From an uncultured Rikenellaceae bacterium (GTDB taxonomy: Bacteria > Bacteroidota > Bacteroidia > Bacteroidales > VadinHA17), in the NCBI GenBank assembly GCA_964446825.1, contig CAYUQR010000004.1:22828-86827 (forward strand): DNA of 64,000 nt, given 5' to 3'. The notes under the pieces were generated by a model. It worked only from the letters and a program-made list of their open reading frames with translations, did not search any database and was not told where the DNA came from. This document shows positions 38,413 to 62,690 of the stretch, in pieces (position 1 is the stretch's first letter; each line of letters opens with the position of its first letter). Both the position numbers and the translations under genes were made by a program.

Positions 38413-38485
38413 CGGCCCGTAGCTCAGCTGGCAGAGCACGTGACTCTTAATCATGGGGTCGAGGGTTCGATTCCCTCCGGGCCGA
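38413..38485 (+). tRNA. tRNA-Lys(CTT)
   Basis: Acceptor CGGCCCG/CGGGCCG, D arm GCTC/GAGC, anticodon loop CT-CTT-AA, T arm GAGGG-TTCGATT-CCCTC; CCA not encoded. Confidence 0.95.
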
Positions 38486-49860: not shown

Positions 49861-49876
49861 ATGAACGTAGGTTCAT
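49861..49876. promoter_or_regulatory. Operator ATGAAC-GTAG-GTTCAT
   Basis: Perfect arms, flanked by TTGCATT and TATCTTT exactly as at 2841. Confidence 0.8.
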
Positions 49877-49899
49877 TATCTTTACATAAAACAAGAGAT

Positions 49900-50145
49900 A
49901 TGAAAGCCTCAATAGCAATTAAGATTTTTTTTATTCTGCCTCTTATACTTTTTGTTGATTATATCCTTATGGCGATAATAGGATGTTCAACATGCCTTTT
50001 TGGTCTTGGTGAAGATTTTTACTGCGGTCCTTTTTGTGCAGCAGGAAAAATAATTTTAGCTTTGTCAGTGATATTCTTTGGCTACCTTCTCTACCCGGAT
50101 ATCAAGACATTGTTCAAATCAAACAAAAATGGCGAGGCCAAATAA
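49900..50145 (+). CDS. Small two-helix membrane protein with Cys-containing loop
   Basis: GCSTCLFG..YCGPFC between hydrophobic helices; the ORF-track start 49861 lies inside the operator. Confidence 0.65.
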   Translation: MKASIAIKIFFILPLILFVDYILMAIIGCSTCLFGLGEDFYCGPFCAAGKIILALSVIFFGYLLYPDIKTLFKSNKNGEAK

Positions 50146-50533
50146 AAGCAGGAAAATCTCTAACCCCCCCAAAATGAAGGGCTTTAAGCCCTATGGAATG
50201 TCTTTCTGCAAAATTGACCCAGTTGTTTTGAAATTTGAAGAATTTGAAAGCATCAGATTGATAAATTACGAAAGACTTTCCCAGGAACAGGCGGCTGAGC
50301 AGATGAATATTTCACGTCCTACTTTCACACGGATATATAACAGAGCTTTAAAACAAATTGCCAAATCTTTTGTTGAAGGTAAAGCCCTTGAAATTGAAGG
50401 AGGAAATTACCTCCTTGAAAAGGACTGGTATCGTTGCAAAAAATGCTATAAGCTTATTGAGGGCTTAGAAAATCATTTCAGATGCAAGGATTGTAATTTA
50501 TATGGCGACAGTGAATTAATAAAATTAAATTAG
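50129..50533 (+). CDS. DUF134 protein
   Basis: MARPNKSRKI, EEFESIRL, MNISRPTFTRIY, CKKC..CKDC. Confidence 0.9.
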   Translation: MARPNKSRKISNPPKMKGFKPYGMSFCKIDPVVLKFEEFESIRLINYERLSQEQAAEQMNISRPTFTRIYNRALKQIAKSFVEGKALEIEGGNYLLEKDWYRCKKCYKLIEGLENHFRCKDCNLYGDSELIKLN

Positions 50534-50548
50534 GATACTGGATATTTT

Positions 50549-50938
50549 ATGGAAATAATATTTGAAGGAGACAAAATAGTTACCGCATTATATAATGGAC
50601 ATACAATCAAAACAGATCAACCTCTTGACAATGGAGGAGGCAATACCGCTCCTGCCCCATTTGATCTTTTTATGGCATCGATAGGCACATGTGCAGGAAT
50701 CTATGTGAAATCATTCTGCGACAGACGTAATATACCTACCGATAATATAAGGATCTTTCAGGATGTTGAATATAGTAACAAGACTCATCTTCCCGCTAAT
50801 GTCACAATTGATATTAAATTACCGGCTGATTTTCCTGAAAAGTATAAAGATGCTGTCATGAATTCGGCTGATCTTTGTGCGGTAAAAAGATCCATCTTCG
50901 ATCCTCCGGCTTTCCGGATTAAAACATCCCTGGCATAA
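50549..50938 (+). CDS. OsmC-family protein
   Basis: TDQP..GG..APAPFDLFMASIGTCAG, LCAVKR. Confidence 0.9.
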   Translation: MEIIFEGDKIVTALYNGHTIKTDQPLDNGGGNTAPAPFDLFMASIGTCAGIYVKSFCDRRNIPTDNIRIFQDVEYSNKTHLPANVTIDIKLPADFPEKYKDAVMNSADLCAVKRSIFDPPAFRIKTSLA

Positions 50939-51041
50939 TAAAAAAATATACGATTTATTGGCTTTAAGAACTTTCTCATATCCTGATAATTAACCAACTC
51001 AGAAATTAAAATAAAAATAAGTAATTTAAGAGGTCCGATTA

Positions 51042-52778
51042 TTGATGCATTTTATGAATACAATAATCCACAAACCTCTTAATTCCCTTTGGCTTAAAGC
51101 TTCTGTGATTGGAAGTTTCTGGGCTTCTATAGAGATTATTTTAGGTAGTTTCCTCCATAATCTAAAGGTCCCGCTTTCCGGTACCATCCTTTCATTTATA
51201 AGTGTCTTCCTATTAATCTCATTTCTTCAGATCTGGAAAGAAAATGGCTTGGTTCTGAGGGCAGGTATAATTTGTGCATTGATGAAGTCAATCTCACCAA
51301 GTGCGTTGATAATAGGGCCCATGATTGGCATTTTCACCGAAGCAATGCTTCTGGAATTCTTCATCTGGTTACTTGGTAAAAATTTGTTTGGCTATATGGC
51401 AGGCGGTGCATTCGCAATCTTAAGTGCATTACTCCATAAACTGGTTAGCCTGATAATCTTATATGGCTTTGATTTCGTTAAAATACTAAATGCATTTTAT
51501 CAGTTCGCCGTAAAACAGATTCATCTGAGTGATCCAAACCCGTTACACCTGGTAACATTAATCGTATTAATCTATTTATTGACCGGGATACTCGCCGCTA
51601 TTGCAGGATACCTAACAGGCAAAAAGTACATGGTTTCCAGGGGAACATCTGCAATGACAAATGGAATAAAAATTGAATATAAGGAAAAAACGCCTTTTAT
51701 CGCACAAGAACACAGGTATTCGGTATTTAATCTGTTTCTGAACACTTTTGCAGTTATTATCAGCCTCTTAATAATCAATTCAGACAAATCCGTTATTCTC
51801 TGGCTTATTCCTCTGATATATATATTGTATTGTGTGATTCATTACAAATCTTCACTGAACAGATTCAAAAAGATATCCCTCTGGCTGCAATTCATTATAA
51901 TTACCGCTATAGCTGCCTTTCTCTGGAATGGCATTTCAGGGGAAAGTATGTTTTCTTTAACCGGACTTACGGCAGGATTAAAGATGATAAGCAGAGCAGT
52001 GGTGGTAATAATCGGATTTGCGTCTATAAGTATTGAGTTAAAAAATCCGGTGGTAAAATCTGTTCTGTATGGCAGAGGTTTTGCCAGCCTGTACCAATCT
52101 ATCAATCTCTCATTCTCAGCACTAGGTTCAATCATATCATCTATGCCGGAATCAGGTAGCATTCTCAGACAAACCCGTACCTTTATGCGGGGGATACTCA
52201 GTCAGGCTGAAAATCTTCTCGAGATCTTTGAGAGTGAAACTATGAAGAGATCCCCTGTAATTATTATTACCGGAGATATCCGACAGGGGAAAACAACCTA
52301 TGTAAAGAAAATAGTCAATAAGCTGCAAAATCATAATAAAAAAATAGCTGGATTTCTATCAATTGGTATTGATGCTAATGGAGAGCGTTCCGGATTCAGA
52401 CTACATAATATACAAACAGAAGAGCAGGTTGAATTATGTACAAAAGTGCACCAAATGACCTGGCTGAGGTATGGGAGCTATTATTTTAATCCGGTTGGAA
52501 TTCAAACGGGCAAAGAAATTCTGAACAAAGCCAACCTGGAGGGCATACAATTAATAGTTATTGACGAAATCGGACCACTGGAAATTAATGATAACGGCTG
52601 GAGCGGATCCATAGATAATCTTTGTCAGAACAGCCAGATTCCTCAGCTGTGGGTCGTCAGAAAATCCCTGACAGACAAGATTATCAAAAAATGGAATATT
52701 GGAAATGTTTATATCTTCGATATCAGTGAAGATAGTGTTGAAGATGCTGAGAATAAAATCCTTGAGCTCATCCAGTGA
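51042..52778 (+). CDS. Polytopic membrane protein fused to a C-terminal THEP1/NTPase_1-type P-loop domain
   Basis: Many hydrophobic segments (WASIEIILGSFLHNL); then ITGDIRQGKTT and IVIDEIGPLE. Confidence 0.75.
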   Translation: MMHFMNTIIHKPLNSLWLKASVIGSFWASIEIILGSFLHNLKVPLSGTILSFISVFLLISFLQIWKENGLVLRAGIICALMKSISPSALIIGPMIGIFTEAMLLEFFIWLLGKNLFGYMAGGAFAILSALLHKLVSLIILYGFDFVKILNAFYQFAVKQIHLSDPNPLHLVTLIVLIYLLTGILAAIAGYLTGKKYMVSRGTSAMTNGIKIEYKEKTPFIAQEHRYSVFNLFLNTFAVIISLLIINSDKSVILWLIPLIYILYCVIHYKSSLNRFKKISLWLQFIIITAIAAFLWNGISGESMFSLTGLTAGLKMISRAVVVIIGFASISIELKNPVVKSVLYGRGFASLYQSINLSFSALGSIISSMPESGSILRQTRTFMRGILSQAENLLEIFESETMKRSPVIIITGDIRQGKTTYVKKIVNKLQNHNKKIAGFLSIGIDANGERSGFRLHNIQTEEQVELCTKVHQMTWLRYGSYYFNPVGIQTGKEILNKANLEGIQLIVIDEIGPLEINDNGWSGSIDNLCQNSQIPQLWVVRKSLTDKIIKKWNIGNVYIFDISEDSVEDAENKILELIQ

Positions 52779-52876: not shown

Positions 52877-53080
52877 TTATTCCTTCTTCTTTGTACTTAA
52901 ACCAAATGGTAAATAAAGGGGGCAGAAACTAATAAGACTTGTTACTACAAATATACCTGCCACTATTAAAAGAATAATTGCCAATGTACCTGTTATTACA
53001 TGAGTAAAATAAAGTACAAGCACGACAATTGCAACCAGTATCCTGATCACCTTGTCAATAGTTCCCATGTTCTTTTTCAT
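52877..53080 (-). CDS. DUF2892 (YgaP-like) membrane protein
   Basis: NMGTIDKVIR, CPLYLPFGLST. Confidence 0.9.
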   Translation of the reverse strand: MKKNMGTIDKVIRILVAIVVLVLYFTHVITGTLAIILLIVAGIFVVTSLISFCPLYLPFGLSTKKKE

Positions 53081-53114
53081 AATAAAATAATTTTAAAATT
53101 ATTAATATCCAAAG

Positions 53115-54383
53115 TTAATCCATCTCTTTTGAAATCGCCATTGCGGCTATTGTCCCGTCAGCAACAGCAGTAGTTATCTGACGATATTTTTTGCTTATCA
53201 CATCTCCCACAGCATAGACTCCCGGTATGTTTGTCCTCATATCTTCATCGGTCTTTATATATCCCCACCTGTCGAGAATCAGTTTGTCCTTAAAAAGGTC
53301 AATATTGGGTTTCATTCCGATAAAAATAAATACTCCGTCACTAAACAGTTTCCGGCGCTCTTTTATTTTTAGATTTTCCACTTCTGTTATCATCTTATCT
53401 CCTTCCCTGGTGAACGATCTTGGTTCATTCTCAAACAGAATGTTAATTTTCGGATTTTTGAATACTTTCTCCTGAGCCTGCTTATTTGCTGTCAGCTTAT
53501 CAAACTGGTGAACGATTGTCAGTTTACTTGCAAACCTGGTAATATATTCCGATTCTTCGACAGCTGAATTACCACCACCAATAACAATAACCTCTTTGCC
53601 ATCAAAGTATTTTGCGTCGCAGGTAGCACAGTAAGAGATCCCCTTACCTTTAAGTTCCCTTTCACCCGGGGCCCCTGTAAGATTCGGAGTTGTACCGGTA
53701 GCTATAATGATCTTTTTTGCTTTTACGGTTTCATACTCATCTATTAAAACCTCTTTTTTATCAAGATCAACTTTTGTAATATCAACTGCTACTTTGTATA
53801 CTGTGCCGCACAGTTTAGTCTGCTCACTCATGTTATGTGAAAGCATATAACCCGCCTGAGGCTCAATAAAACCCGGATAATTTGAAACTTCATGAGTAGT
53901 TGACACATGTCCGCCCGGCAATGCAATATCGATAAGGACAGTATTGACTTTAGACTGACACAGGTATAAACCGGCTGTAAGGCCTCCGGGACCTGCGCCA
54001 AGAATTATAACGTCAAACTCTGAAACAGAAGGTTTAACATTGTTTTTTATCTCTTTTACTCTTTTTTCCGGCAACATATTATTCAGGTTGCGAATAATAT
54101 CTATCCTCTTGATTCCGCCCACCAGTCTTTCGCCGACCTCTTTCCCATTGTTGAAAAACAATAGTGTGGGAGAACCATTAACACCCAGCTTTTCAGCCAA
54201 ATCCCTATTTTGCTGGCGAAATATTTTAAGGAATTTTACATCTTTTCCATATAATAATGATAAGTTCTCATATTTTGATGCCAATGCCTCGCAGGGAGGA
54301 CATTCAGTTGAATAAAAATCAAGGACCACTTTGCCTGACTGCAATACCTCACTTTCAAATTCTGTTGAATTTATCTCTTTCAT
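53115..54383 (-). CDS. Thioredoxin-thioredoxin reductase fusion (Trx N-terminal)
   Basis: ECPPCE Trx domain; GAGPGG, CATCD, GGGNSA, AVGD..ITTAVADG. Confidence 0.9.
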   Translation of the reverse strand: MKEINSTEFESEVLQSGKVVLDFYSTECPPCEALASKYENLSLLYGKDVKFLKIFRQQNRDLAEKLGVNGSPTLLFFNNGKEVGERLVGGIKRIDIIRNLNNMLPEKRVKEIKNNVKPSVSEFDVIILGAGPGGLTAGLYLCQSKVNTVLIDIALPGGHVSTTHEVSNYPGFIEPQAGYMLSHNMSEQTKLCGTVYKVAVDITKVDLDKKEVLIDEYETVKAKKIIIATGTTPNLTGAPGERELKGKGISYCATCDAKYFDGKEVIVIGGGNSAVEESEYITRFASKLTIVHQFDKLTANKQAQEKVFKNPKINILFENEPRSFTREGDKMITEVENLKIKERRKLFSDGVFIFIGMKPNIDLFKDKLILDRWGYIKTDEDMRTNIPGVYAVGDVISKKYRQITTAVADGTIAAMAISKEMD

Positions 54384-54413
54384 ATATTTTAAAATAATTA
54401 TACCTGTTAAAAT

Positions 54414-55745
54414 TTATATGGCGACATTCTCAAAATAAGCCGAAAAACCAAGTTCCAGTAGTTCCTTCACAGGCCTGCAGTCGGTAGAACATATCTCGCC
54501 GGTTCTGTTCCTTGCAACCGATCCACATCCTCCACCACATGCCAGCCGGACAGGGCAGTCTTTGCATTCAGGAATAGATGTTACATCGCGTCTTTCCCAC
54601 TCCTCAATTATAGAATCTCTGCGTGTTACAACAGGATAGAATGTACCCAATGATTCATCTGATTTCCCGACTGTGGCAGTGCATGAGTAAATCTGACCTG
54701 TATAATCAAAAGCCCACTCAGTTTTACATGCGGGACAAGAATCAAAAAGAGGGTCAGGGAGATCTCCATTCTCTGAAATAAATTTTGCTATAGAATATGC
54801 AGGTTTGTAAAATTCAAGAATATGGGGATGCACTTTAGTAAGTTCATAGATTGCCTCAAAGATTGCTACTCTGTCGAACAGTTTATCAGGATCAGACTGA
54901 CAATGATGCAACTCATAATTCCGGCCCATCTGGCTTTTGAAGAAAGCACTTTTTGTCCAGCCTTTGTCAATAGCAAACTGTGCCAATTCAGGAAGGTTAC
55001 TGATATTTTCTTTATCGATTACCATCCGGAGATTTATATCAATTTTGTTTTCCAGACAGGAATCTATACCTCTCACAATCTTGTTAAAGGTACCTTCTCC
55101 TCCTTTCAGAAAACGGCGCCTATTATGGACTTTTTCAGTACCATCGAGGGTGACCTGGATTTCACGAATTTTCCCTTTTCCAAGTATCTGAGAATATTCT
55201 TCCAGAAAATACCCATTGGTCACAAAGCTTACTTCAAGATCAGATTCGACGGACCTTTCAAGTATTTGTGATATAAGTTCTTTTTGTTTTGGACTATTAA
55301 GAAGCGGTTCCCCTCCGAAAATTGTGATATACTTCTTGCGCCCGGCAAACTCCCTGCTGACATAGCTGAAAAATGTATCGATAACTTCCGTACTCAGTCC
55401 CTGAACAGGATTTGTATATTGATCCTGGTAACAATAGGTACAGGCAAAGTTGCAGCTGTAGTTTGTCACAAAAAATATCTGTATTTCATCCTTGTCGCGG
55501 GAATCAATAAAATCGAGGTATCTTTCACGATAAATACGTGTTTCTTCTGTTTCATCAATCAAATATCCCTTTTCTATCAATTCACTCATGAAATCATCAT
55601 CAGTCTTTTTCCCACTTTTGATCATCTCAACCTTTCTCGCATCATCAACGGACAGAATATCAGCATTACCTGTAAGAAGGTTGATGATGAAATAGTTTTC
55701 AGAATCCCTGATCCTTGAAAAAATATTGAATTTTGAATATTCCAT
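54414..55745 (-). CDS. Radical SAM/SPASM peptide maturase with RRE-like N-terminus
   Basis: CNFACTYC, FGGEPL; SPASM CPAC..YSC..CKDC..CGGGC..C; ~80-aa winged-helix-like N-terminus. Confidence 0.9.
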   Translation of the reverse strand: MEYSKFNIFSRIRDSENYFIINLLTGNADILSVDDARKVEMIKSGKKTDDDFMSELIEKGYLIDETEETRIYRERYLDFIDSRDKDEIQIFFVTNYSCNFACTYCYQDQYTNPVQGLSTEVIDTFFSYVSREFAGRKKYITIFGGEPLLNSPKQKELISQILERSVESDLEVSFVTNGYFLEEYSQILGKGKIREIQVTLDGTEKVHNRRRFLKGGEGTFNKIVRGIDSCLENKIDINLRMVIDKENISNLPELAQFAIDKGWTKSAFFKSQMGRNYELHHCQSDPDKLFDRVAIFEAIYELTKVHPHILEFYKPAYSIAKFISENGDLPDPLFDSCPACKTEWAFDYTGQIYSCTATVGKSDESLGTFYPVVTRRDSIIEEWERRDVTSIPECKDCPVRLACGGGCGSVARNRTGEICSTDCRPVKELLELGFSAYFENVAI

Positions 55746-55824
55746 TTAATGATATAAAAATATCAGACGAGATCGTTCTAAAATGAATGAATTTTGTGAT
55801 TGACCAATTTTTTTGCAGAGATAG

Positions 55825-55923
55825 TTAATCGTGACAGCCGACAACTGTTTTAGAAGTTTTGGCGCAACACTGGGCGACTTTTGAACCGGCCCTGTTTTCT
55901 TTCTTTTTAATCAGACTTTTCAT
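55825..55923 (-). CDS. Putative RiPP precursor peptide, 32 aa
   Basis: Hand translation MKSLIKKKENRAGSKVAQCCAKTSKTVVGCHD; directly upstream of the rSAM/SPASM gene; missed by the ORF track. Confidence 0.8.
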   Translation of the reverse strand: MKSLIKKKENRAGSKVAQCCAKTSKTVVGCHD

Positions 55924-55933
55924 AATTTATCAT

Positions 55934-56392
55934 CTATTTTAATAAAACATCATTTACACCTTTTTCCAGGTTTTCTTTCGACACAAACCCTACAACAAGC
56001 TGTGGCTTCCCTTTCACAGGTATGAATACCAGGGTAGGCAGCCCGCTTATTCCAAGTGATTGGGTGACTGCTCTTTCCTGGTCAGTATTGACCTTGTAAA
56101 CAACTATTTTACCGGCATACTCTTTTGCAACTTCCTCAACCAGGGGAGAAAGTACACGACACGGAGGGCACCAGTCAGCATAAAAATCAATAATGGCCGG
56201 CTTGTCTCCTTTATAATTCCATACCTTGTCAGATTCATAATCAAAAACATATTTCCTGAATGTATCGTTTGTGAGAGGCATAACTATTTCGCCGGAAGCC
56301 AGTTTTGTACCTTCGGCAGGCTTATTCCCTGATTTACAACCTGATATTAGCAGAGATAAAGTGAGCGCTGTTAAGACAATGTTCTTTCTCAT
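55934..56392 (-). CDS. Thioredoxin-like lipoprotein
   Basis: Lipobox LISGC, DFYADWCPPC, GISGLPT. Confidence 0.9.
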   Translation of the reverse strand: MRKNIVLTALTLSLLISGCKSGNKPAEGTKLASGEIVMPLTNDTFRKYVFDYESDKVWNYKGDKPAIIDFYADWCPPCRVLSPLVEEVAKEYAGKIVVYKVNTDQERAVTQSLGISGLPTLVFIPVKGKPQLVVGFVSKENLEKGVNDVLLK

Positions 56393-56404
56393 GTTCTTAT
56401 ATTT

Positions 56405-57061
56405 TCAGTTTTTACAACCACAACCACCTTTACCCGATGGTTTTTCTCCGGCAACAGTCCAGGATGAGACTCTTGTCATTCCTTTTTCGTAAGGTTCTGA
56501 TTCTTCAATGATCTTAATTGAACCAAACCCGGCGTTATGAAGTTGTTCCAGGTATTCGTCTCGAGTTACAGAACCTGCCCAGCATTCTGAAATTGCAACA
56601 GGGTCATTTCTGAATTCATCAGCAATGGGCTCAATAGCATAAATATCACTTACCACAAATCTACCGCCATTCTTGAGTATCCTGAAGACCTCATTCCATA
56701 CAGCCTGTTTGTCAGAGGCATGATTGATTGTACAATTTGAAATAACAAGATCAGCAGTATTATCTTTGAGATTAAGTTTTTCAAGCGAACTCTGAATAAA
56801 GTTCACATTATTGATTCCAAGCCTTTCTGCTGTGCTTACGGCTTTCCTGATCATACCACCTGAAATATCGATGCCGTAAACCTTACCCTTTTCCCCGACA
56901 GTTTCTGAAAGTCTTAAAACATCTGTCCCCCTTCCGCTGCCAAGATCAACGCATATCTCTCCGGGCAATGCCCCGGAATAATTAATTGCTCCTCCGCAAG
57001 AAAGGCAGCATGTTGATTCTGCAAGATCGCTGTATCGTTTATTGATTTCAGTATATTCCAT
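56405..57061 (-). CDS. ArsM-like SAM-dependent methyltransferase
   Basis: CCLSCGGA, DLGSGRG, ISNCTIN, SECWAG, C-terminal CGC; likely start 57061. Confidence 0.75.
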   Translation of the reverse strand: MEYTEINKRYSDLAESTCCLSCGGAINYSGALPGEICVDLGSGRGTDVLRLSETVGEKGKVYGIDISGGMIRKAVSTAERLGINNVNFIQSSLEKLNLKDNTADLVISNCTINHASDKQAVWNEVFRILKNGGRFVVSDIYAIEPIADEFRNDPVAISECWAGSVTRDEYLEQLHNAGFGSIKIIEESEPYEKGMTRVSSWTVAGEKPSGKGGCGCKN

Positions 57062-57145
57062 TCTGTTTTTTTTTACCACTCCGAATTTTTAGGAGCTTAT
57101 TTCAATCTTCAAAGATGTTACTTTTAAAAAAGTGGCGCAAAGATA

Positions 57146-57159
57146 ATGATAAATATCAT
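57146..57159. promoter_or_regulatory. Palindrome ATGAT-N4-ATCAT (FNR-like) abutting the -7 element
   Basis: Adjacent to minus-strand TATCTTTG (57138..57145) of the methyltransferase/RiPP operon. Confidence 0.45.
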
Positions 57160-57233
57160 GAATCGCAATAGTATCACTTAAATCTTTTTAATATCACTTA
57201 TTTTTTTAACTTTGTAAAGTAAACTTTCTGAAA

Positions 57234-57665
57234 ATGAGTTCAATTTTTAAAAATGATCTTGATGATGATCGCCTTTCAGAGCTTTTCCGGAGTGATGAAA
57301 AATGTTATGAATTCCTGGCCAACCTGAAATGGAGTGAGGGTTTCACTTGCCGTAAATGCGGCAATAAAAATTATTGTCAGGGCAAGACACCATATTCAAG
57401 GCGATGCACCAAATGCAAGGCAGAAGAATCAGCTACCTCCGGTACTATTTTTCATAATTGTAAATTTCCTGTAAGCAAAGCTTTTTACATTGCATATAAT
57501 GTATGTAAAGGGAAAGAAAACATTTCCACATATGAATTTGCCCGACGGTTATCGCTCAGGCAGATGACCTGCTGGAATTTCAAGGCCAAGATTCAGAATG
57601 CGCTTCAGGAAATTGATTCACTTACCGAGAGGGAAAAATCATCGATACAAAAAATTCTTTCATAG
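57234..57665 (+). CDS. Stand-alone IS1595-type zinc-ribbon/HTH protein (no DDE domain)
   Basis: CYEFLANLKWSEGFTCRKCG, RRCTKC..SATSGTIFH; no catalytic domain or IRs seen. Confidence 0.7.
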   Translation: MSSIFKNDLDDDRLSELFRSDEKCYEFLANLKWSEGFTCRKCGNKNYCQGKTPYSRRCTKCKAEESATSGTIFHNCKFPVSKAFYIAYNVCKGKENISTYEFARRLSLRQMTCWNFKAKIQNALQEIDSLTEREKSSIQKILS

Positions 57666-57694: not shown

Positions 57695-58594
57695 TCAGGC
57701 AAGATACATATTTATCAGTTGTTCATAGAGTTCCTGTTTACCGCTTATGGTTACAGGTTCCCCTGCCTTAGAAGCTATTTCCCTTAATTTTTCAAGAGTA
57801 AGTTTCCCTTCTTCAAAGTCTTTTCCCGATCCTTTATCAAAAGACTCGTATCTTTTCTTACGCATCTGAAGATATTCACTCTCTTTCAATATCGTATCCG
57901 CTATTACAAGCGATCTTGCGAAAGTGTCCATTCCGCTTACATGAGCAATAAATAAGTCTTCATTATCGGTGGAATTTCTTCTTACTTTGGCATCAAAATT
58001 GATTCCGCCATGTGTAAATCCTCCGGCCTGCAGAATTACCAACATAGCCTCGGTTATCTCATAAATATTGGTTGGGAACTCATCGGTGTCCCATCCATTC
58101 TGATAATCACCTTTATTGGCATCAATACTGCCTAACAGGCCTGCATCGGCCGCAACCTGAAGCTCGTGCATAAAAGTATGTCCGGCAAGTGTGGCATGAT
58201 TAACTTCAATATTCAGTTTAAAATCTTTATCAAGGCCATGATGACGCAAGAATCCTATAATTGTGGCAACATCAAAATCATACTGATGTTTCGAAGGCTC
58301 CATGGGTTTTGGCTCAATAAGGAATGTTCCGTCAAAGCCAATTTTTCTTCCATAGTCGCGTGCCAGAGAGAGCATCAAGCCTCTGCTTTATCCTATCATC
58401 ATTTTTTGCATTTTCCCATGGATATAACCTTGTAGCATTCCCAAATGGATCAGAACCGTCGCCACAGAAAGAATGCCAGTATGCTATGGCAAATCTGAGA
58501 TGATCCTTCATCGTTTTACCCAATACGATCTCGTCGGGGTTATACCATTTAAAAGCCAGTGGATTTTTAGATTTCCTGCCTTCATATTCGATCA
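57695..58594 (-). pseudogene. xylA: Xylose isomerase, 5' truncated with an internal frameshifting deletion
   Basis: [26 protein letters not shown] joined out of frame to [29 protein letters not shown]. Confidence 0.9.
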
Positions 58595-58595
58595 G

Positions 58596-58660
58596 CCCCC
58601 TGCCCCCCTAAAGAGGGGTTAATTCTGTACTATTTTTAACCCCCTTTGGGGGGTCGGGGG
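58596..58660. repeat. G/C-rich bipartite palindrome (REP-like)
   Basis: CCCCCTGCCCCCCTAAAGAGGGGTT..AACCCCCTTTGGGGGGTCGGGGG. Confidence 0.7.
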
Positions 58661-58669
58661 TTTTAATAT

Positions 58670-59368
58670 CTATTCATGAGACCTTCTTTCCCTGTAAATA
58701 CAATCTTTCATATCGCAGATTTTGCAGGTATAAGCAAGTCGTTTAACTTCCTTCCCGATGCCAATAATACCGCTCACTGATTTAACAGGATTCATAAGGG
58801 CTGATTCAGTTAACCGGATACCACAAAAGTTATCCGGGACCAGCTGGAATAGTTTATGTTGTTCTGCCACATCCCAACCACAATATCCCGGACTGTAACG
58901 GTTAGTAATCTTCATTCCTGAAGCCAGGGCCTGGTCTTCAAGATTAAGCTGCATGAGATCGGCTGCCGCCTCAACAATTTCACTTCCTATAACATCGAAG
59001 ATATAACCTCTGAGCAGATCTTTCTCAATCATTGCTTTCCTGCTGTTCAGTCCGATCTCTTCTCCTGCAGTGCAGATGAACACCGCAATTGACTCAGACT
59101 TTTTTAACTGCCCAAAAATAATTTTACCAATATCGAATCTGATATTACTGATCTCAGCAGATTGTGTTTCCTTATGGAACCTGATATCATTAAAAATGTT
59201 ATACTGAGCTTTTATATTGCAGATATCGTGTGCTTCCATTAATAATTCATTAATGAGACCGGTAACCAGTCCACGGTCCTCCCCTTCTTTGTATCCTATA
59301 ACTTTCTCAATAGCGGGGACGCTCAGCTTCAGATCCTTCAAGTCAAACTCAAATGTCCTGTTTACCAT
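58670..59368 (-). CDS. B12-dependent methionine synthase activation-domain protein
   Basis: AVFICTAG, RYSPGYCGW, MNPVKSVSGIIG, CKICDMKDC. Confidence 0.85.
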   Translation of the reverse strand: MVNRTFEFDLKDLKLSVPAIEKVIGYKEGEDRGLVTGLINELLMEAHDICNIKAQYNIFNDIRFHKETQSAEISNIRFDIGKIIFGQLKKSESIAVFICTAGEEIGLNSRKAMIEKDLLRGYIFDVIGSEIVEAAADLMQLNLEDQALASGMKITNRYSPGYCGWDVAEQHKLFQLVPDNFCGIRLTESALMNPVKSVSGIIGIGKEVKRLAYTCKICDMKDCIYRERRSHE

Positions 59369-60833
59369 TCTTTGTAGTAGCTTTTAATACTTTGTTATTA
59401 TCAAGGCCTGATTCAGTCACAATTCTCTGAACTATGGATTCCCATCCCATAGTCATGATATGAATTCCATTCACTCCTTTTTTATCTTTTATCCTGTCAA
59501 TCATCTCAAGAGCAACCTGAACACCTTCCTCTGCTCCCGATTCCCCGGCCTTAACCATGCGTGACATAATCTTTTCCGGAACCCTGACCCCGGGAACTCT
59601 TTCGTTGAGATATTTAGCTGTTTTATAATTCTTCAAAGGTGCAATTCCAATCAGAATAGATACCTTACCAAGGATATTTCTTTTATCAAGCTGTTCAAGC
59701 CATAAGTCGAGGCGGTCGGGATCAAATATAATATTTGTCTGAAAAAACTGAGCTCCTGCGTTCACTTTTTTATGGTCCTTTATAGCCTGAAGTTCAGGGT
59801 CTGAGGCAAAAGGAGTCGTTGCGGCTCCGAGAAAAAATTCAGGAGGTTCTTTAATACTACTTCCATCAAGATAAAGGCTATCGTCTCTCATTCTTCTAAG
59901 GATCCAGAGCATCTGCACAGAGTCAATATCAAAAAAATTCATATTCCCGGTTGGAGGAAGGCCAATAACCGGACTGTCGCCTGTCAGGCAAAGAATATTC
60001 CTTATTCCAAGGTATTTCAGTCCAACAGCTATAGATTGCAGACTGTTTCTTGTTATATCACGGGCGACTATTTGATATACTGGTTCAGTATTGTTATCAT
60101 CTGCTACTTTACTGCATATCAGACTCGACATATTTGGCTTGCCTGCAGATGAGTTCATAAAATTAACCGCATTTACAAAAGGGCTTACTGACTTAATATC
60201 CTTTATTAACTTTACAGTCATCGTGTCATGTGGGGATGTTACCTCGGTAGTCACAACAAATTCACCATCCACAAGTGCCTTCTGAAGACCAGAAACTGAT
60301 TTTATGTTTTTTGCCTGATGATATTCTGAGTCACCCTGCCACCAATCTGGCTGTCGGATCTTCCTGAAAACGTTGTCCCATAATATTTCTTTTCTGACTT
60401 TACCTTTAAATATGAGTCCACTTATGAACTTCCAGGTACCTGTTTTAATTATCTGCCGGGCAACATCACTCCATGTTCCTGTTCCGGTTTTATTCCAATC
60501 GAGTGGAGGTAAGACTTCAAGAAGAGTTTCCTGCCTGCCAGTTTTTAATGCCCTTCTATAAATATTGTACCAGACGCATTTACGAGTTTCGTCGATATAG
60601 CAATTTTTCTCCGGGGTTATATTGCCGCAAGGGCCGTTTCTTAATCCTTTCGGGCATTCCATCGGACATATGAAAGCTGTCTCCTGAAGGAGACAATTCC
60701 CACACATGCGGCATCCAAATAATGGGCCTTTAATGCTGAGTTCTGCTTTAGCCAGTATACGGCTTACAAATTTTTCGCGTTTGAAAGGATAAAAGGCCGG
60801 TTGCCATCTGCGTGCAGGTTTGATGCCAGACAT
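59349..60833 (-). CDS. metF: Methylenetetrahydrofolate reductase with fused N-terminal Cys-rich MetV/MTHFR_C domain
   Basis: CRMCGNC..CPMECPKGLRNGPCG; TTEVTSP, ILCLTGD, AGAQFFQTN. Confidence 0.85.
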   Translation of the reverse strand: MSGIKPARRWQPAFYPFKREKFVSRILAKAELSIKGPLFGCRMCGNCLLQETAFICPMECPKGLRNGPCGNITPEKNCYIDETRKCVWYNIYRRALKTGRQETLLEVLPPLDWNKTGTGTWSDVARQIIKTGTWKFISGLIFKGKVRKEILWDNVFRKIRQPDWWQGDSEYHQAKNIKSVSGLQKALVDGEFVVTTEVTSPHDTMTVKLIKDIKSVSPFVNAVNFMNSSAGKPNMSSLICSKVADDNNTEPVYQIVARDITRNSLQSIAVGLKYLGIRNILCLTGDSPVIGLPPTGNMNFFDIDSVQMLWILRRMRDDSLYLDGSSIKEPPEFFLGAATTPFASDPELQAIKDHKKVNAGAQFFQTNIIFDPDRLDLWLEQLDKRNILGKVSILIGIAPLKNYKTAKYLNERVPGVRVPEKIMSRMVKAGESGAEEGVQVALEMIDRIKDKKGVNGIHIMTMGWESIVQRIVTESGLDNNKVLKATTKNGKQDI

Positions 60834-60868
60834 AATAGGTCAGATTCAAGAATAAAAAAGAAAATCAA

Positions 60869-61711
60869 TTAGTTAACTCCTGATTGAAAATTTTCCAAAA
60901 ATCGTACTGCATAATCGTCCCTGCAAAGGATCAGATCAGTTGCTCTGACGATAGGGACAATCTTCTCCGGGTTTGCAATAGGGCATGTTAATCCGTTAAG
61001 AATAGATAACACCATAAATGCTGAGTTTAAAACCTCCCTGTTTGGCAAACCGAATGAAATATTACTGGCACCCTGAGTAATGTTCAGTCCGAGTTTCTGA
61101 TGGACAAGTCTGATAGTATCCAGTGTAACGATACATGCCCGGGGATCAGCACTAACTGCCATTACCAAAGGATCGATAATCACATCATTTTCATTGATCC
61201 CGAGCTTGACTGCCCTTTCCAATATCTTTTCTGCAATGATGAGTCTTTTTTCAGGATCATTTGTAATTCCTTCATCATCCATGGTCAGTCCTATAATAGC
61301 AGCTCCATACTCTCTGGCCATTGGCAACAGAGTATTTAAAGACGCCTCTTCTCCGTTTACGGAATTAATAAGACATTTCCCTCCCGCTACCTTAAGTGCA
61401 GCTTCTATAGCATCAGGATTCGGGGAATCGAGGCAAAGCGGAATATCAAATTTTTCTTTTACAGCCAGAACAGCCGCAGGGAGCAACTTCACGTCATCAA
61501 CTCCAGGAAACCCCACATTTATATCGAGTACATCAGCCATTGCCCTGATCTGTTTGTCAGCCAGGTCGAGCATATATTCAAAATTCCCAACTTCGAGCGT
61601 TGATACCAGTTTTTTCTTTCTTGTGGGGTTTATGCATTCACCAATAACAACTACAGGACCGTTGGTATCAATAACCACTTCCTTTGTTTTTCCTTTGAGA
61701 ATTGTCTGCAT
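60869..61711 (-). CDS. Pterin-binding methyltetrahydrofolate:corrinoid methyltransferase (AcsE/MetH pterin domain)
   Basis: IGECINPT, LDINVG, CLDS, INSVNG, IIDPL, GASNISFGLP. Confidence 0.9.
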   Translation of the reverse strand: MQTILKGKTKEVVIDTNGPVVVIGECINPTRKKKLVSTLEVGNFEYMLDLADKQIRAMADVLDINVGFPGVDDVKLLPAAVLAVKEKFDIPLCLDSPNPDAIEAALKVAGGKCLINSVNGEEASLNTLLPMAREYGAAIIGLTMDDEGITNDPEKRLIIAEKILERAVKLGINENDVIIDPLVMAVSADPRACIVTLDTIRLVHQKLGLNITQGASNISFGLPNREVLNSAFMVLSILNGLTCPIANPEKIVPIVRATDLILCRDDYAVRFLENFQSGVN

Positions 61712-62387: not shown

Positions 62388-62690
62388 ATTTCTAAAGTTA
62401 AAATCAGATAATAATATCGGCAGAACAAAAATGATGTTTTATTCCATCTGCATCACCAAAATAATTCATTTTTTTTATTTTCAGTTATATTCTTTTAATT
62501 ATTTGCATGCCTCGTTTAATCCGGCTATATTTTGATTTCTTTAATTTCTATATATCCATGTAATTCAAAATATAGTATCTTTAATTCTATAATTTATAAG
62601 GTGGAGACCAGTAACCATTCAAAAAACGGGGCGGTATCGAAAAGCCAGATGAGTAGGTAAACCTAATATAATCTCAAACAATCATCTATT

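Follow-up and report, generated by a model that had tools for sequence, protein, structure and literature searches.

A conserved cassette joins a cysteine-rich peptide and its putative radical SAM maturase to an ArsM-like methyltransferase and a thioredoxin system

Introduction

The radical S-adenosylmethionine (SAM) enzyme CteB, which carries a recognition element (RRE) for peptides that are made by ribosomes and modified after translation (RiPPs), is the thioether-forming maturase of SCIFF. Enzymes with a SPASM domain also make C-C cross-links, formylglycine, thiooxazoles and epimers. To our knowledge, only a few systems yield a peptide product of housekeeping type, namely pyrroloquinoline quinone (PQQ), mycofactocin and SCIFF, the function of SCIFF being unknown. 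Cysteine sites are also used to handle soft metals and metalloids: a vicinal cysteine pair and a third cysteine make up the As(III) site of ArsD, the C-terminal cysteine pair of MerA carries Hg(II), and turnover of the arsenite methyltransferase ArsM is supported by thioredoxin (Trx) and thioredoxin reductase (TrxR). Here we describe an operon in a 64,000-nucleotide stretch of DNA from an uncultured Rikenellaceae bacterium (GenBank assembly GCA_964446825.1, contig CAYUQR010000004.1, positions 22,828 to 86,827 of the forward strand; hereafter the window), in which a 32-residue peptide with three cysteines is encoded beside a radical SAM enzyme with RRE and SPASM regions (rSAM), an ArsM-like methyltransferase and a Trx-TrxR fusion.

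We propose, with somewhat better than even confidence, that the peptide and its own maturase belong to a cell-retained RiPP-type cassette of four genes that occurs across phyla and serves thiol or soft metal(loid) chemistry.

Results

The operon consists of six co-oriented genes on the minus strand, separated by gaps of 10-79 nt. Domain calls for the operon proteins were made with Pfam and NCBIfam (June 2026).

57079..56405, minus strand: ArsM-like SAM methyltransferase, a GTG-start open reading frame (ORF) of 224 aa
56392..55934, minus strand: lipoprotein thioredoxin, 152 aa, with lipobox LLISGC and a WCPPC motif
55923..55825, minus strand: candidate precursor peptide ORF, 32 aa, MKSLIKKKENRAGSKVAQCCAKTSKTVVGCHD, with ATG start and TAA stop
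55745..54414, minus strand: RRE-radical SAM-SPASM enzyme, 443 aa, Pfam Radical_SAM and Fer4_12
54383..53115, minus strand: fusion of Trx and TrxR, 422 aa, with one redox motif per domain (Trx, CPPC; reductase, CATC)
53080..52877, minus strand: DUF2892/YgaP-like protein with two transmembrane helices, 67 aa, Pfam PF11127, E 3.4e-22

An earlier note made from the sequence had described the peptide ORF, its basic leader and three-cysteine core, its spacing from the rSAM gene and the run of genes around it, and all of these were recovered where the note had placed them. The distance from the peptide stop to the rSAM start is exactly 79 nt; this spacer gave no RNA structure signal (minimum free energy -9.4 kcal/mol, z = 0.08), and an Rfam search of the window and six loci found no match in or near the operon.

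A 32-codon ORF alone is no evidence for a gene here, because 117 ORFs of at least 25 aa overlap the same 11-kb stretch. The evidence comes from related loci. A scan of species-representative genomes returned 517 relatives of the rSAM, of which the best 80 were fetched and form the basis of all counts out of 80 given below; all are from uncultured Bacteroidales/Bacteroidota, and the identity of their rSAM is 66-84 %. The peptide was found on the rSAM strand and upstream of the rSAM gene in 80/80 loci. Among the 79 distinct nucleotide versions of its last 17 codons and stop, variability at codon positions 1, 2 and 3 was 0.04, 0.08 and 0.40, respectively, and despite this free codon turnover 11 of the 16 core residues were invariant (A-Q-C-C-A-K-x-S-x4-G-C-H-D). 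The combination of free third positions with fixed residues therefore indicates purifying selection on the translated product. The N-terminus is basic and likewise conserved (MKS[LV]IKKK), while the linker to the core varies in sequence and in length. As judged from the alignment, this succession of conserved N-terminus, variable linker and conserved core is the layout that would be expected of a leader-plus-core precursor.

The peptide thus adjoins the enzyme and is conserved together with it, as would be expected of the cognate precursor of an RRE-rSAM/SPASM maturase: it was kept beside the homologous rSAM genes in all 80 Bacteroidales loci and in seven distant loci (see below), which is one of the points on which the earlier note had let its proposal stand or fall. 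We conclude that peptide and rSAM are very probably a genuine pair of precursor substrate and maturase. The ORF had also been taken to be previously uncalled, which does not hold in general. An identical 32-aa gene is already called on two public contigs beside an identical rSAM, and a profile search with the peptide alignment returned ~1,400 homologue clusters, those listed being unnamed or annotated as 'hypothetical protein' and carrying no Pfam domain. Searched against Pfam and NCBIfam, the peptide itself matched no family, even at E = 10.

The 443-aa enzyme matches Pfam Radical_SAM at E 1e-21. Its CxxxCxxC radical SAM motif (C98-x3-C102-x2-C105) was invariant in 72/72 aligned sequences, and its SPASM motif is complete (C337-x12-G350-x4-C355, C394-x2-C397-x5-C403-x3-C407 and C423); the seven SPASM cysteines at positions 337, 355, 394, 397, 403, 407 and 423 were invariant in the same 72/72 sequences. 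Within the orthologous clade, 35/39 sequences share an eighth cysteine, C282. A first AlphaFold2 model built from 22 close homologues was poor (predicted local distance difference test, pLDDT, 60) and was replaced by one based on the 72-sequence alignment, which reached pLDDT 93 and a predicted template modelling score of 0.90, with pLDDT 93-97 over residues 1-90. In this model, residues 7-85 form an N-terminal beta3-alpha3 domain (strands 7-11, 18-22 and 27-31; helices 33-43, 50-59 and 65-85), whose predicted topology is that of an RRE, i.e. a PqqD-like winged helix. The assignment is purely structural, and Pfam PqqD had no match in the enzyme.

When the model was compared with the PDB by Foldseek, CteB came first (5WHY/5WGG; E 3.5e-18, TM-score 0.66-0.69) in a full-length alignment of 449-477 columns, followed by anSME, SuiB, TigE, ChlB and SkfB. 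The description of the protein as a SPASM enzyme with an RRE-like N-terminus is thus borne out by its motifs, its predicted fold and its closest solved structure. The enzyme reached the cut-off of no curated rSAM family in NCBIfam. Its best scores were obtained with CefB (155.2 bits against a cut-off of 600), TIGR04463 (134.2 against 525) and PapB (NF047865; 132.2 against 340), all of which act on cysteine-rich peptides. It falls outside the curated maturase families TIGR03974 (84.5 against 425), NF047865, NF038107 (CefB) and TIGR04463.

The methyltransferase probably starts at the ATG at 57061, which gives 218 aa, because public gene calls give this length and the first 6 residues of the longer ORF are not conserved. 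Its class I SAM-binding fold is indicated by matches to Pfam Methyltransf_31, _25 and _11, and its best family is NCBIfam PRK11873, arsenite methyltransferase (E 9e-54), with 182.7 bits against a cut-off of 263; the alignment covers only positions 58-235 of the 272 in the profile. It also aligned to the ArsM structures 5EVJ, 4KW7 and 4FR0 at E ~5e-25. In these alignments Cys28 (in CGG), Cys116 (in SNC) and Cys166 (in EC-AG) correspond to C72, C174 and C224 of CmArsM, the As(III)-binding cysteines, which lie in YGCG, SNCV and EC(L)GG in the ArsM structures. Cys24, 25, 28, 43, 116 and 166 were invariant in 75 orthologues, and the triad also occurs in three of the distant loci (L083, L092 and L093). 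A CCxxC cluster at residues 24-28 stands in for the distant N-terminal cysteine of ArsM; the canonical N-terminal region with the fourth cysteine and the C-terminal region are both lacking, and the score stays under the ArsM cut-off. By its predicted active-site cysteines, the protein is therefore ArsM-like, as the earlier note had called it, and by score and architecture it is not a member of the ArsM family. Of the Bacteroidales loci, 75/80 have the gene, as does each of the seven distant loci with the peptide.

The Trx-TrxR fusion was found in 73/80 Bacteroidales loci and in six distant ones (L083, L084, L085, L090, L092 and L093). It matches Pfam Pyr_redox_2 (E 8e-55) and Thioredoxin (E 7.5e-21), and its score of 309.1 with TIGR01292 lies just below the equivalog cut-off of 343.45. 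Both redox CxxC motifs are maintained: C28 and C31 of the CPPC motif (residues 28-31) are 96 % conserved, and C252 and C255 of the CATC motif (residues 252-255) 100 %.

The lipoprotein thioredoxin, which is predicted to be exported, matches Pfam Thioredoxin and scores 95.7 bits with TIGR01068 against a cut-off of 96.8. Its Cys19 is 96 % and its Cys75 and Cys78 are 100 % conserved; the gene is present in 55-65 of the 80 Bacteroidales loci and in none of the distant lineages. The DUF2892 protein, whose Cys53 (in an FCP motif) is 100 % conserved, occurs in 41/80 loci and is sometimes relocated upstream of the methyltransferase. Both are accessory components.

Two observations concern the makeup of the Bacteroidales operons. 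In 52/80 loci (L002-L079; e.g. 4280..4519 in L024) the first operon gene encodes a DUF6132 membrane protein of ~80 aa with two helices and a GCxSGxC motif; in the window it is not present between promoter and methyltransferase. A ~300-nt '5' untranslated region' in many relatives turned out to hold this gene. One Bacteroidales metagenome-assembled genome (MAG; L018, 1..7423) has a tandem duplication, with rSAM, Trx, Trx-TrxR and DUF2892 followed by peptide, rSAM, Trx, Trx-TrxR and DUF2892.

The cassette extends beyond Bacteroidales. Clustering at 50 % identity collapses the Bacteroidales rSAM orthologues to one representative, and the next tier consists of full-length proteins of 35-43 % identity. 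Seven loci of this tier carry the peptide (L091 duplicates L090):

L083, GC 56 %: Trx-TrxR, methyltransferase, peptide, rSAM; peptide ending in KIAQCCAKNSKIVSGCHD
L085, GC 43 %: Trx-TrxR, methyltransferase, peptide, rSAM; peptide ending in GQCCAKSSKVVSGCHD
L086, GC 66 %: methyltransferase, peptide, rSAM; peptide ending in AKCCAKSSKRAVGCHD
L084, GC 45 %: rSAM fused to DUF5714; peptide ending in TTAQCCSKSSKIVAGCH followed by G or N
L090, GC 45 %: rSAM, then DUF5714; peptide ending in TTAQCCSKSSKIVAGCH followed by G or N
L093 (Acidobacteriota MAG), GC 46 %: methyltransferase, peptide, rSAM, Trx-TrxR; peptide ending in AQCCSKSSKVVAGCHN
L092 (Acetivibrio cellulolyticus CD2), GC 36 %: rSAM, methyltransferase, peptide, Trx-TrxR; peptide ending in SCCKKFTTAQCCSKSSKVVAGCHD

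At an rSAM identity of only 35-43 % and a GC content ranging from 36 to 66 %, the peptide core was nearly unchanged in these seven loci, its C-terminal residue being D, N or G. The methyltransferase was present in 7/7 and the Trx-TrxR fusion in 6/6 of the loci that were long enough, the 1.9-kb contig of L086 being too short. Across the loci compared, the conserved core of the cassette is thus four genes: methyltransferase, peptide, rSAM and Trx-TrxR. An rSAM profile of the distant tier finds at least 1,804 clusters, mostly rSAM::DUF5714 fusions, and among the names of their sources are Clostridium, Ruminiclostridium, Acidobacteriota, Carboxydocellales and Ca. Humimicrobiaceae. The family boundary lies near 300 bits, because the rSAM homologue of L087 (35 % identity, 265 bits) adjoins a different peptide. 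On contig L089, no peptide or methyltransferase was found upstream of the rSAM gene.

When ORFs within +-6 kb of the 80 loci were clustered, no recurrent protease, exporter/transporter or immunity gene was found, which extends to the relatives the earlier note's remark that no protease or exporter is adjacent.

Several further genes accompany the distant loci. In most members outside Bacteroidales, the rSAM either is fused to DUF5714 or has it as the next gene (L084, 7381..8184; L089, 2174..2887; L090, 3363..4142). This domain contains a PRCCKRD motif as well as zinc-ribbon cysteines and is present neither in the window nor in any of the 80 Bacteroidales loci. It matches the NCBIfam family 'metal-binding double selenoprotein MbdU' at 123-128 bits, below the cut-off of 600. 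A protein of 47-48 aa with the pattern HCLxTC-x7-9-GCxDC and no family match is encoded in three unrelated loci (L086, 1714..1860; L092, 13094..13240; L093, 10787..10930). Repressors of the CsoR family flank two distant loci, one with a C-H-C pattern and the other a two-cysteine CstR-like protein that lies divergent from the cassette in L085, and a gene resembling CoA-disulfide reductase (CoADR) flanks one locus, L093.

Upstream of the operon, a region of 154 nt separates it from a divergent Zn-ribbon gene and holds two outward-facing Bacteroidetes -7 boxes with a direct-repeat element between them:

57138..57199, minus strand: promoter/operator region of the operon, with -7 box and direct-repeat element
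57145..57138, minus strand: -7 box of the operon, TATCTTTG, a Bacteroidetes-type match
57199..57161, minus strand: operator-like direct-repeat element, AAGTGATATTAAAAAGATTTAAGTGATACTATTGCGATT, conserved in related intergenic regions
57207..57214, plus strand: second, divergent -7 box, Bacteroidetes-type
57234..57665, plus strand: divergent Zn-ribbon (IS1595-like) protein, 143 aa, Pfam PF12760, E 3.4e-8

The general form of the direct-repeat element is RGTGATAYTAAAAAGATTYARGTGATAYTATTGCGATT, or RGTGATAY-N12-RGTGATAY-TATTGCGATT. Its words recur in the divergent intergenic regions of relatives (TTGCGAT in 39/49, AAAAGATT in 47/49), where the element always lies between two divergent -7 boxes. The -7 motif TAnnTTTG is not enriched across the window (88 occurrences against 77.6 expected) and is correctly placed in the divergent intergenic region. 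A sigma-70 promoter and terminator scan of the operon, which does not cover Bacteroidetes promoters, gave counts not above those of shuffled sequences. The 143-aa Zn-ribbon protein occupies the same divergent position in 48/80 loci and has nine conserved cysteines, eight at 100 % and one at 96 %; neither it nor DUF5714 had a significant sequence match in the PDB. These features suggest that the operon is probably controlled from the conserved operator by the divergent Zn-ribbon protein, which is a candidate local regulator. The protein behaves like a resident regulator and not like a transposase fragment.

Other genes surround the cassette in the window. Beyond the Zn-ribbon gene, a xylose isomerase gene at 57701..58643 (minus strand) is broken: when it is aligned with a full-length relative, residues 22-109 of the latter match in one frame and residues 234-460 in another, with ~124 residues missing between the aligned parts. 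An independent JGI contig (L081) has the same shortened gene called. It is followed at 58670..61711 (minus strand) by genes for a protein like the MetH activation domain, for an MTHFR that begins with DUF5981 and for a MeTr-like, pterin-binding protein, a trio that amounts to a split methyl-folate/corrinoid-type module adjoining the cassette. On the other side, 49861..52778 (plus strand) encodes a cysteine-rich membrane ORF (94 aa), DUF134, OsmC and a membrane protein of 578 aa that ends in an NTPase_1 domain. This cluster recurs beside the cassette in 10-23 of the 80 loci, and in A. cellulolyticus the surroundings of the cassette also include a DUF134 gene, together with ParA/NifX-like and C_GCAxxG_C_C genes. 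The Rfam matches in the window, a DUF805 RNA motif (75 bits, above the gathering score) and a tRNA at 62596..62663 and 38413..38485 (both plus strand), are unrelated to the cassette.

Discussion

We infer the chemistry and function of the cassette from comparative genomics and modelling. In the proposed cell-retained cassette, the N-terminal RRE domain of the enzyme would bind the basic N-terminus of the peptide (MK-x-[LV]-[IT]-KK), and the radical SAM/SPASM core would then modify the AQCCAK-S----GCHD segment. The likeliest modification would be one or more intramolecular thioethers from cysteine sulfur, of the sactionine or ranthionine type. By analogy with the nearest structure, CteB, and the nearest families, we hold this chemistry tentatively, at slightly less than an even chance. 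The product would stay in or on the cell and act with the Cys-triad methyltransferase and the disulfide reductase, either as a thiol/thioether ligand for soft metal(loids) of the As/Sb/Hg/Cu type or for reactive sulfur species, or as their carrier or substrate, and the Trx-TrxR fusion would keep the cysteines of peptide and methyltransferase reduced. The Bacteroidales cassette has gained an exported lipoprotein Trx and two small cysteine-bearing membrane proteins, DUF2892 and, in most relatives, DUF6132.

The product most likely resides in or on the cell, because no leader peptidase, exporter or immunity gene is linked to the cassette and the core is invariant. An invariant core suits a cofactor or ligand that remains with the cell better than it suits a bacteriocin. 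The more specific proposal of a thiol or metal(loid) role for the retained product is possible, and we hold it somewhat more tentatively than the thioether chemistry; the resemblance of DUF5714 to MbdU, the CsoR-family neighbours and the CoADR-like gene of L093 fit it as circumstantial evidence.

Several points weigh against this proposal. A thioether would consume a thiol and is therefore a poor fit with a role as pure thiolate ligand, and other chemistry is possible, since SPASM enzymes make several other modifications. No ars, mer or cop transporter and no ArsR was found to accompany the cassette. The methyltransferase does not reach the ArsM cut-off and has neither of the canonical terminal regions; its substrate could simply be the peptide. 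The 37 % rSAM homologue of L088 has no peptide, methyltransferase or TrxR nearby, and the CsoR-like and CoADR-like neighbours, seen in one or two loci each, could be coincidental.

A bolder version of the proposal is that the tailored Cys/His peptide stays in the cell as a cofactor or carrier and that the ArsM-type methyltransferase has this peptide itself as its substrate or as its metal(loid)-presenting partner, with Trx-TrxR closing the redox cycle. The peptide might, for example, present As, Sb, Hg or Cu in a Cys-Cys...Cys-His site, or might be S-methylated or carry a carbon-metalloid bond. We regard this as speculative and rather unlikely. If true, the chemistry would lie outside the known RiPP classes, and many 'arsM' genes in metagenomes of anaerobes would not be classical arsenic-resistance genes. 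The methyltransferases of the cassette match 'arsenite methyltransferase' at E ~1e-54 to 1e-63, so surveys of arsM in anoxic soil and sediment could count them; if these enzymes serve a peptide pathway, arsM inventories are inflated.

Of the alternatives, the one that survives best is a module for As/Sb methylation, in which the methyltransferase would be a minimal true ArsM, its catalytic disulfide would be recycled by Trx-TrxR, and the three-cysteine peptide, whether modified or unmodified, would serve as an ArsD-like chaperone that passes As(III) to the methyltransferase. Arsenite methyltransferase is indeed the best family of the enzyme (E 9e-54), the cysteines equivalent to C72, C174 and C224 are invariant, the methyltransferase and Trx-TrxR genes are always linked, and the CC...C pattern of the peptide resembles the well-established As(III) site of ArsD. 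However, the enzyme is under the ArsM cut-off and has neither the canonical N-terminal cysteine region nor the C-terminal domain; no arsR, acr3/arsB, arsC or arsP was found in the window neighbourhood or among the recurrent neighbours; and a simple chaperone would need no RRE-rSAM-SPASM enzyme. We therefore consider this explanation improbable.

Less probable again is that the peptide serves as a sacrificial scaffold for a small-molecule cofactor, in the manner of PQQ or mycofactocin. Here the rSAM would cross-link or decarboxylate residues of GCHD or QCCAK, the methyltransferase would decorate the product, and housekeeping peptidases would set free a thiol or redox compound of low molecular weight. 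The cassette has no linked peptidase, amidase or flavoenzyme like those of the MftE/MftD/PqqB-F type, distant lineages differ in their C-terminal residue (D, N or G), and the mycofactocin and PqqE families score far below the maturases of cysteine-rich peptides. These findings outweigh, in our view, the invariance of core and C-terminus across phyla, which recalls PqqA and MftA, and the pairing of an rSAM/SPASM enzyme with a dedicated reductase and no exporter.

We give a marginally lower probability to the handling of reactive sulfur or persulfides, or to a trans-membrane thiol-redox relay, in which the peptide would shuttle between dithiol and disulfide forms among the cytoplasmic Trx-TrxR, the small cysteine-bearing membrane proteins and the periplasmic lipoprotein Trx. 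In Bacteroidales the cassette is linked to genes for DUF2892, DUF6132 and this lipoprotein, and the divergent CstR-like regulator of L085 and the CoADR-like gene of L093 would suit a sulfur function, but the membrane and periplasmic parts are missing outside Bacteroidales, and such a function would account neither for the methyltransferase of ArsM type nor for the need of a radical SAM enzyme.

A secreted antimicrobial or signalling ranthipeptide or sactipeptide, with the redox genes as bystanders, is very unlikely. Although the enzyme class and a cysteine-rich precursor are typical of such peptides, bacteriocin cores diversify whereas this one is invariant over several phyla; the methyltransferase is found in every sampled lineage, and no locus of sufficient length lacks Trx-TrxR among the distant ones. 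With no recurrent exporter, protease or immunity gene, a secreted bacteriocin is effectively excluded, in agreement with the earlier note, which had favoured an intracellular product. Finally, short ORFs are plentiful here, and neither this ORF nor its 79-nt spacer carries special signals, but the idea of a chance reading frame or non-coding leader is refuted by the codon-position analysis and stands against conservation in 80/80 loci, free third positions, 11 invariant residues and survival in organisms of 36-66 % GC.

A cell-retained peptide cassette would be of interest for two reasons. The 16-residue core, unchanged from Bacteroidales to Clostridia and Acidobacteriota and unaccompanied by an exporter or protease, points to a peptide product of housekeeping type. 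Furthermore, the combination of an rSAM maturase with an ArsM-type methyltransferase and a private thioredoxin system lies outside the curated families tested. The question is directly testable, because the cassette is present in the cultured and sequenced Acetivibrio cellulolyticus CD2. A full-text literature search returned nothing relevant on the core motifs, DUF5714, DUF6132 or the gene combination; it did not cover a 2025 mSystems paper by Haft and Tolstoy. That paper reportedly defines MbdU and related selenoprotein neighbourhoods and may mention a selenocysteine-containing variant of the cassette neighbourhood.

Comparison with known systems

The earlier note had suggested a distant relation to the geopeptide systems of Geobacter (TIGR04280). 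Both have an rSAM peptide maturase with an N-terminal peptide-binding region, but this family ranked only sixth: its alignment stops at residue 264 (residues 1-264) and scores 108.6 bits, where the cut-off is 400, so that the suggested link is weak and no specific relationship is seen.

Closer in layout is the SCIFF system of Clostridia (ScfA/ScfB, the latter of the CteB type), which also pairs a short, conserved, cysteine-rich peptide with an RRE-rSAM-SPASM enzyme, has no dedicated protease or exporter and is widely conserved in anaerobes; CteB is, in addition, the best structural match. The cassette peptide differs in being unrelated in sequence, with three cysteines in a QCCAK...GCHD arrangement, and the enzyme scores 84.5 against 425 with TIGR03974. 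We know of no SCIFF loci built around an ArsM-like methyltransferase and a Trx-TrxR fusion.

The 'Cys-every-fifth' (CefA/CefB) and 'Cys-rich' (TIGR04463) systems likewise have cysteine-rich precursors, and their maturases align with the whole enzyme, including its N-terminal domain. The scores, however, are 155 against 600 and 134 against 525, and the cassette precursor does not have a cysteine at every fifth residue. With PapB, the freyrasin maturase that forms Cys-to-Asp beta-thioethers, the catalytic and SPASM regions align over residues 96-418 (132 bits, under the cut-off of 340). Since the cassette core ends in C-H-D, a link between Cys and Asp is conceivable; however, distant lineages have Asn or Gly in place of the C-terminal Asp, which therefore cannot be the acceptor everywhere.

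Mycofactocin (MftA/MftB/MftC) and PQQ (PqqA/D/E) resemble the cassette in that an rSAM/SPASM enzyme acts on a short peptide with an invariant functional end, the products stay in the cell and the cassettes co-occur with redox enzymes. In contrast to these systems, the RRE is here fused to the enzyme, no MftE-like peptidase or tailoring set is linked, and MftC scores 57 bits. The methyltransferase shares with ArsM/AS3MT and its Trx/TrxR reductant the fold, the three As(III)-binding cysteine positions and a linked thioredoxin system, but it is only 218-224 aa long, lies outside an ars operon and is locked to a peptide/rSAM pair. Taken together, an rSAM/SPASM enzyme with a cysteine-rich precursor is a known arrangement. 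The precursor family described here, which is invariant across phyla and has a Trx-TrxR fusion and a methyltransferase of ArsM type as fixed partners, is probably new, as no curated rSAM or peptide model in NCBIfam or Pfam is reached.

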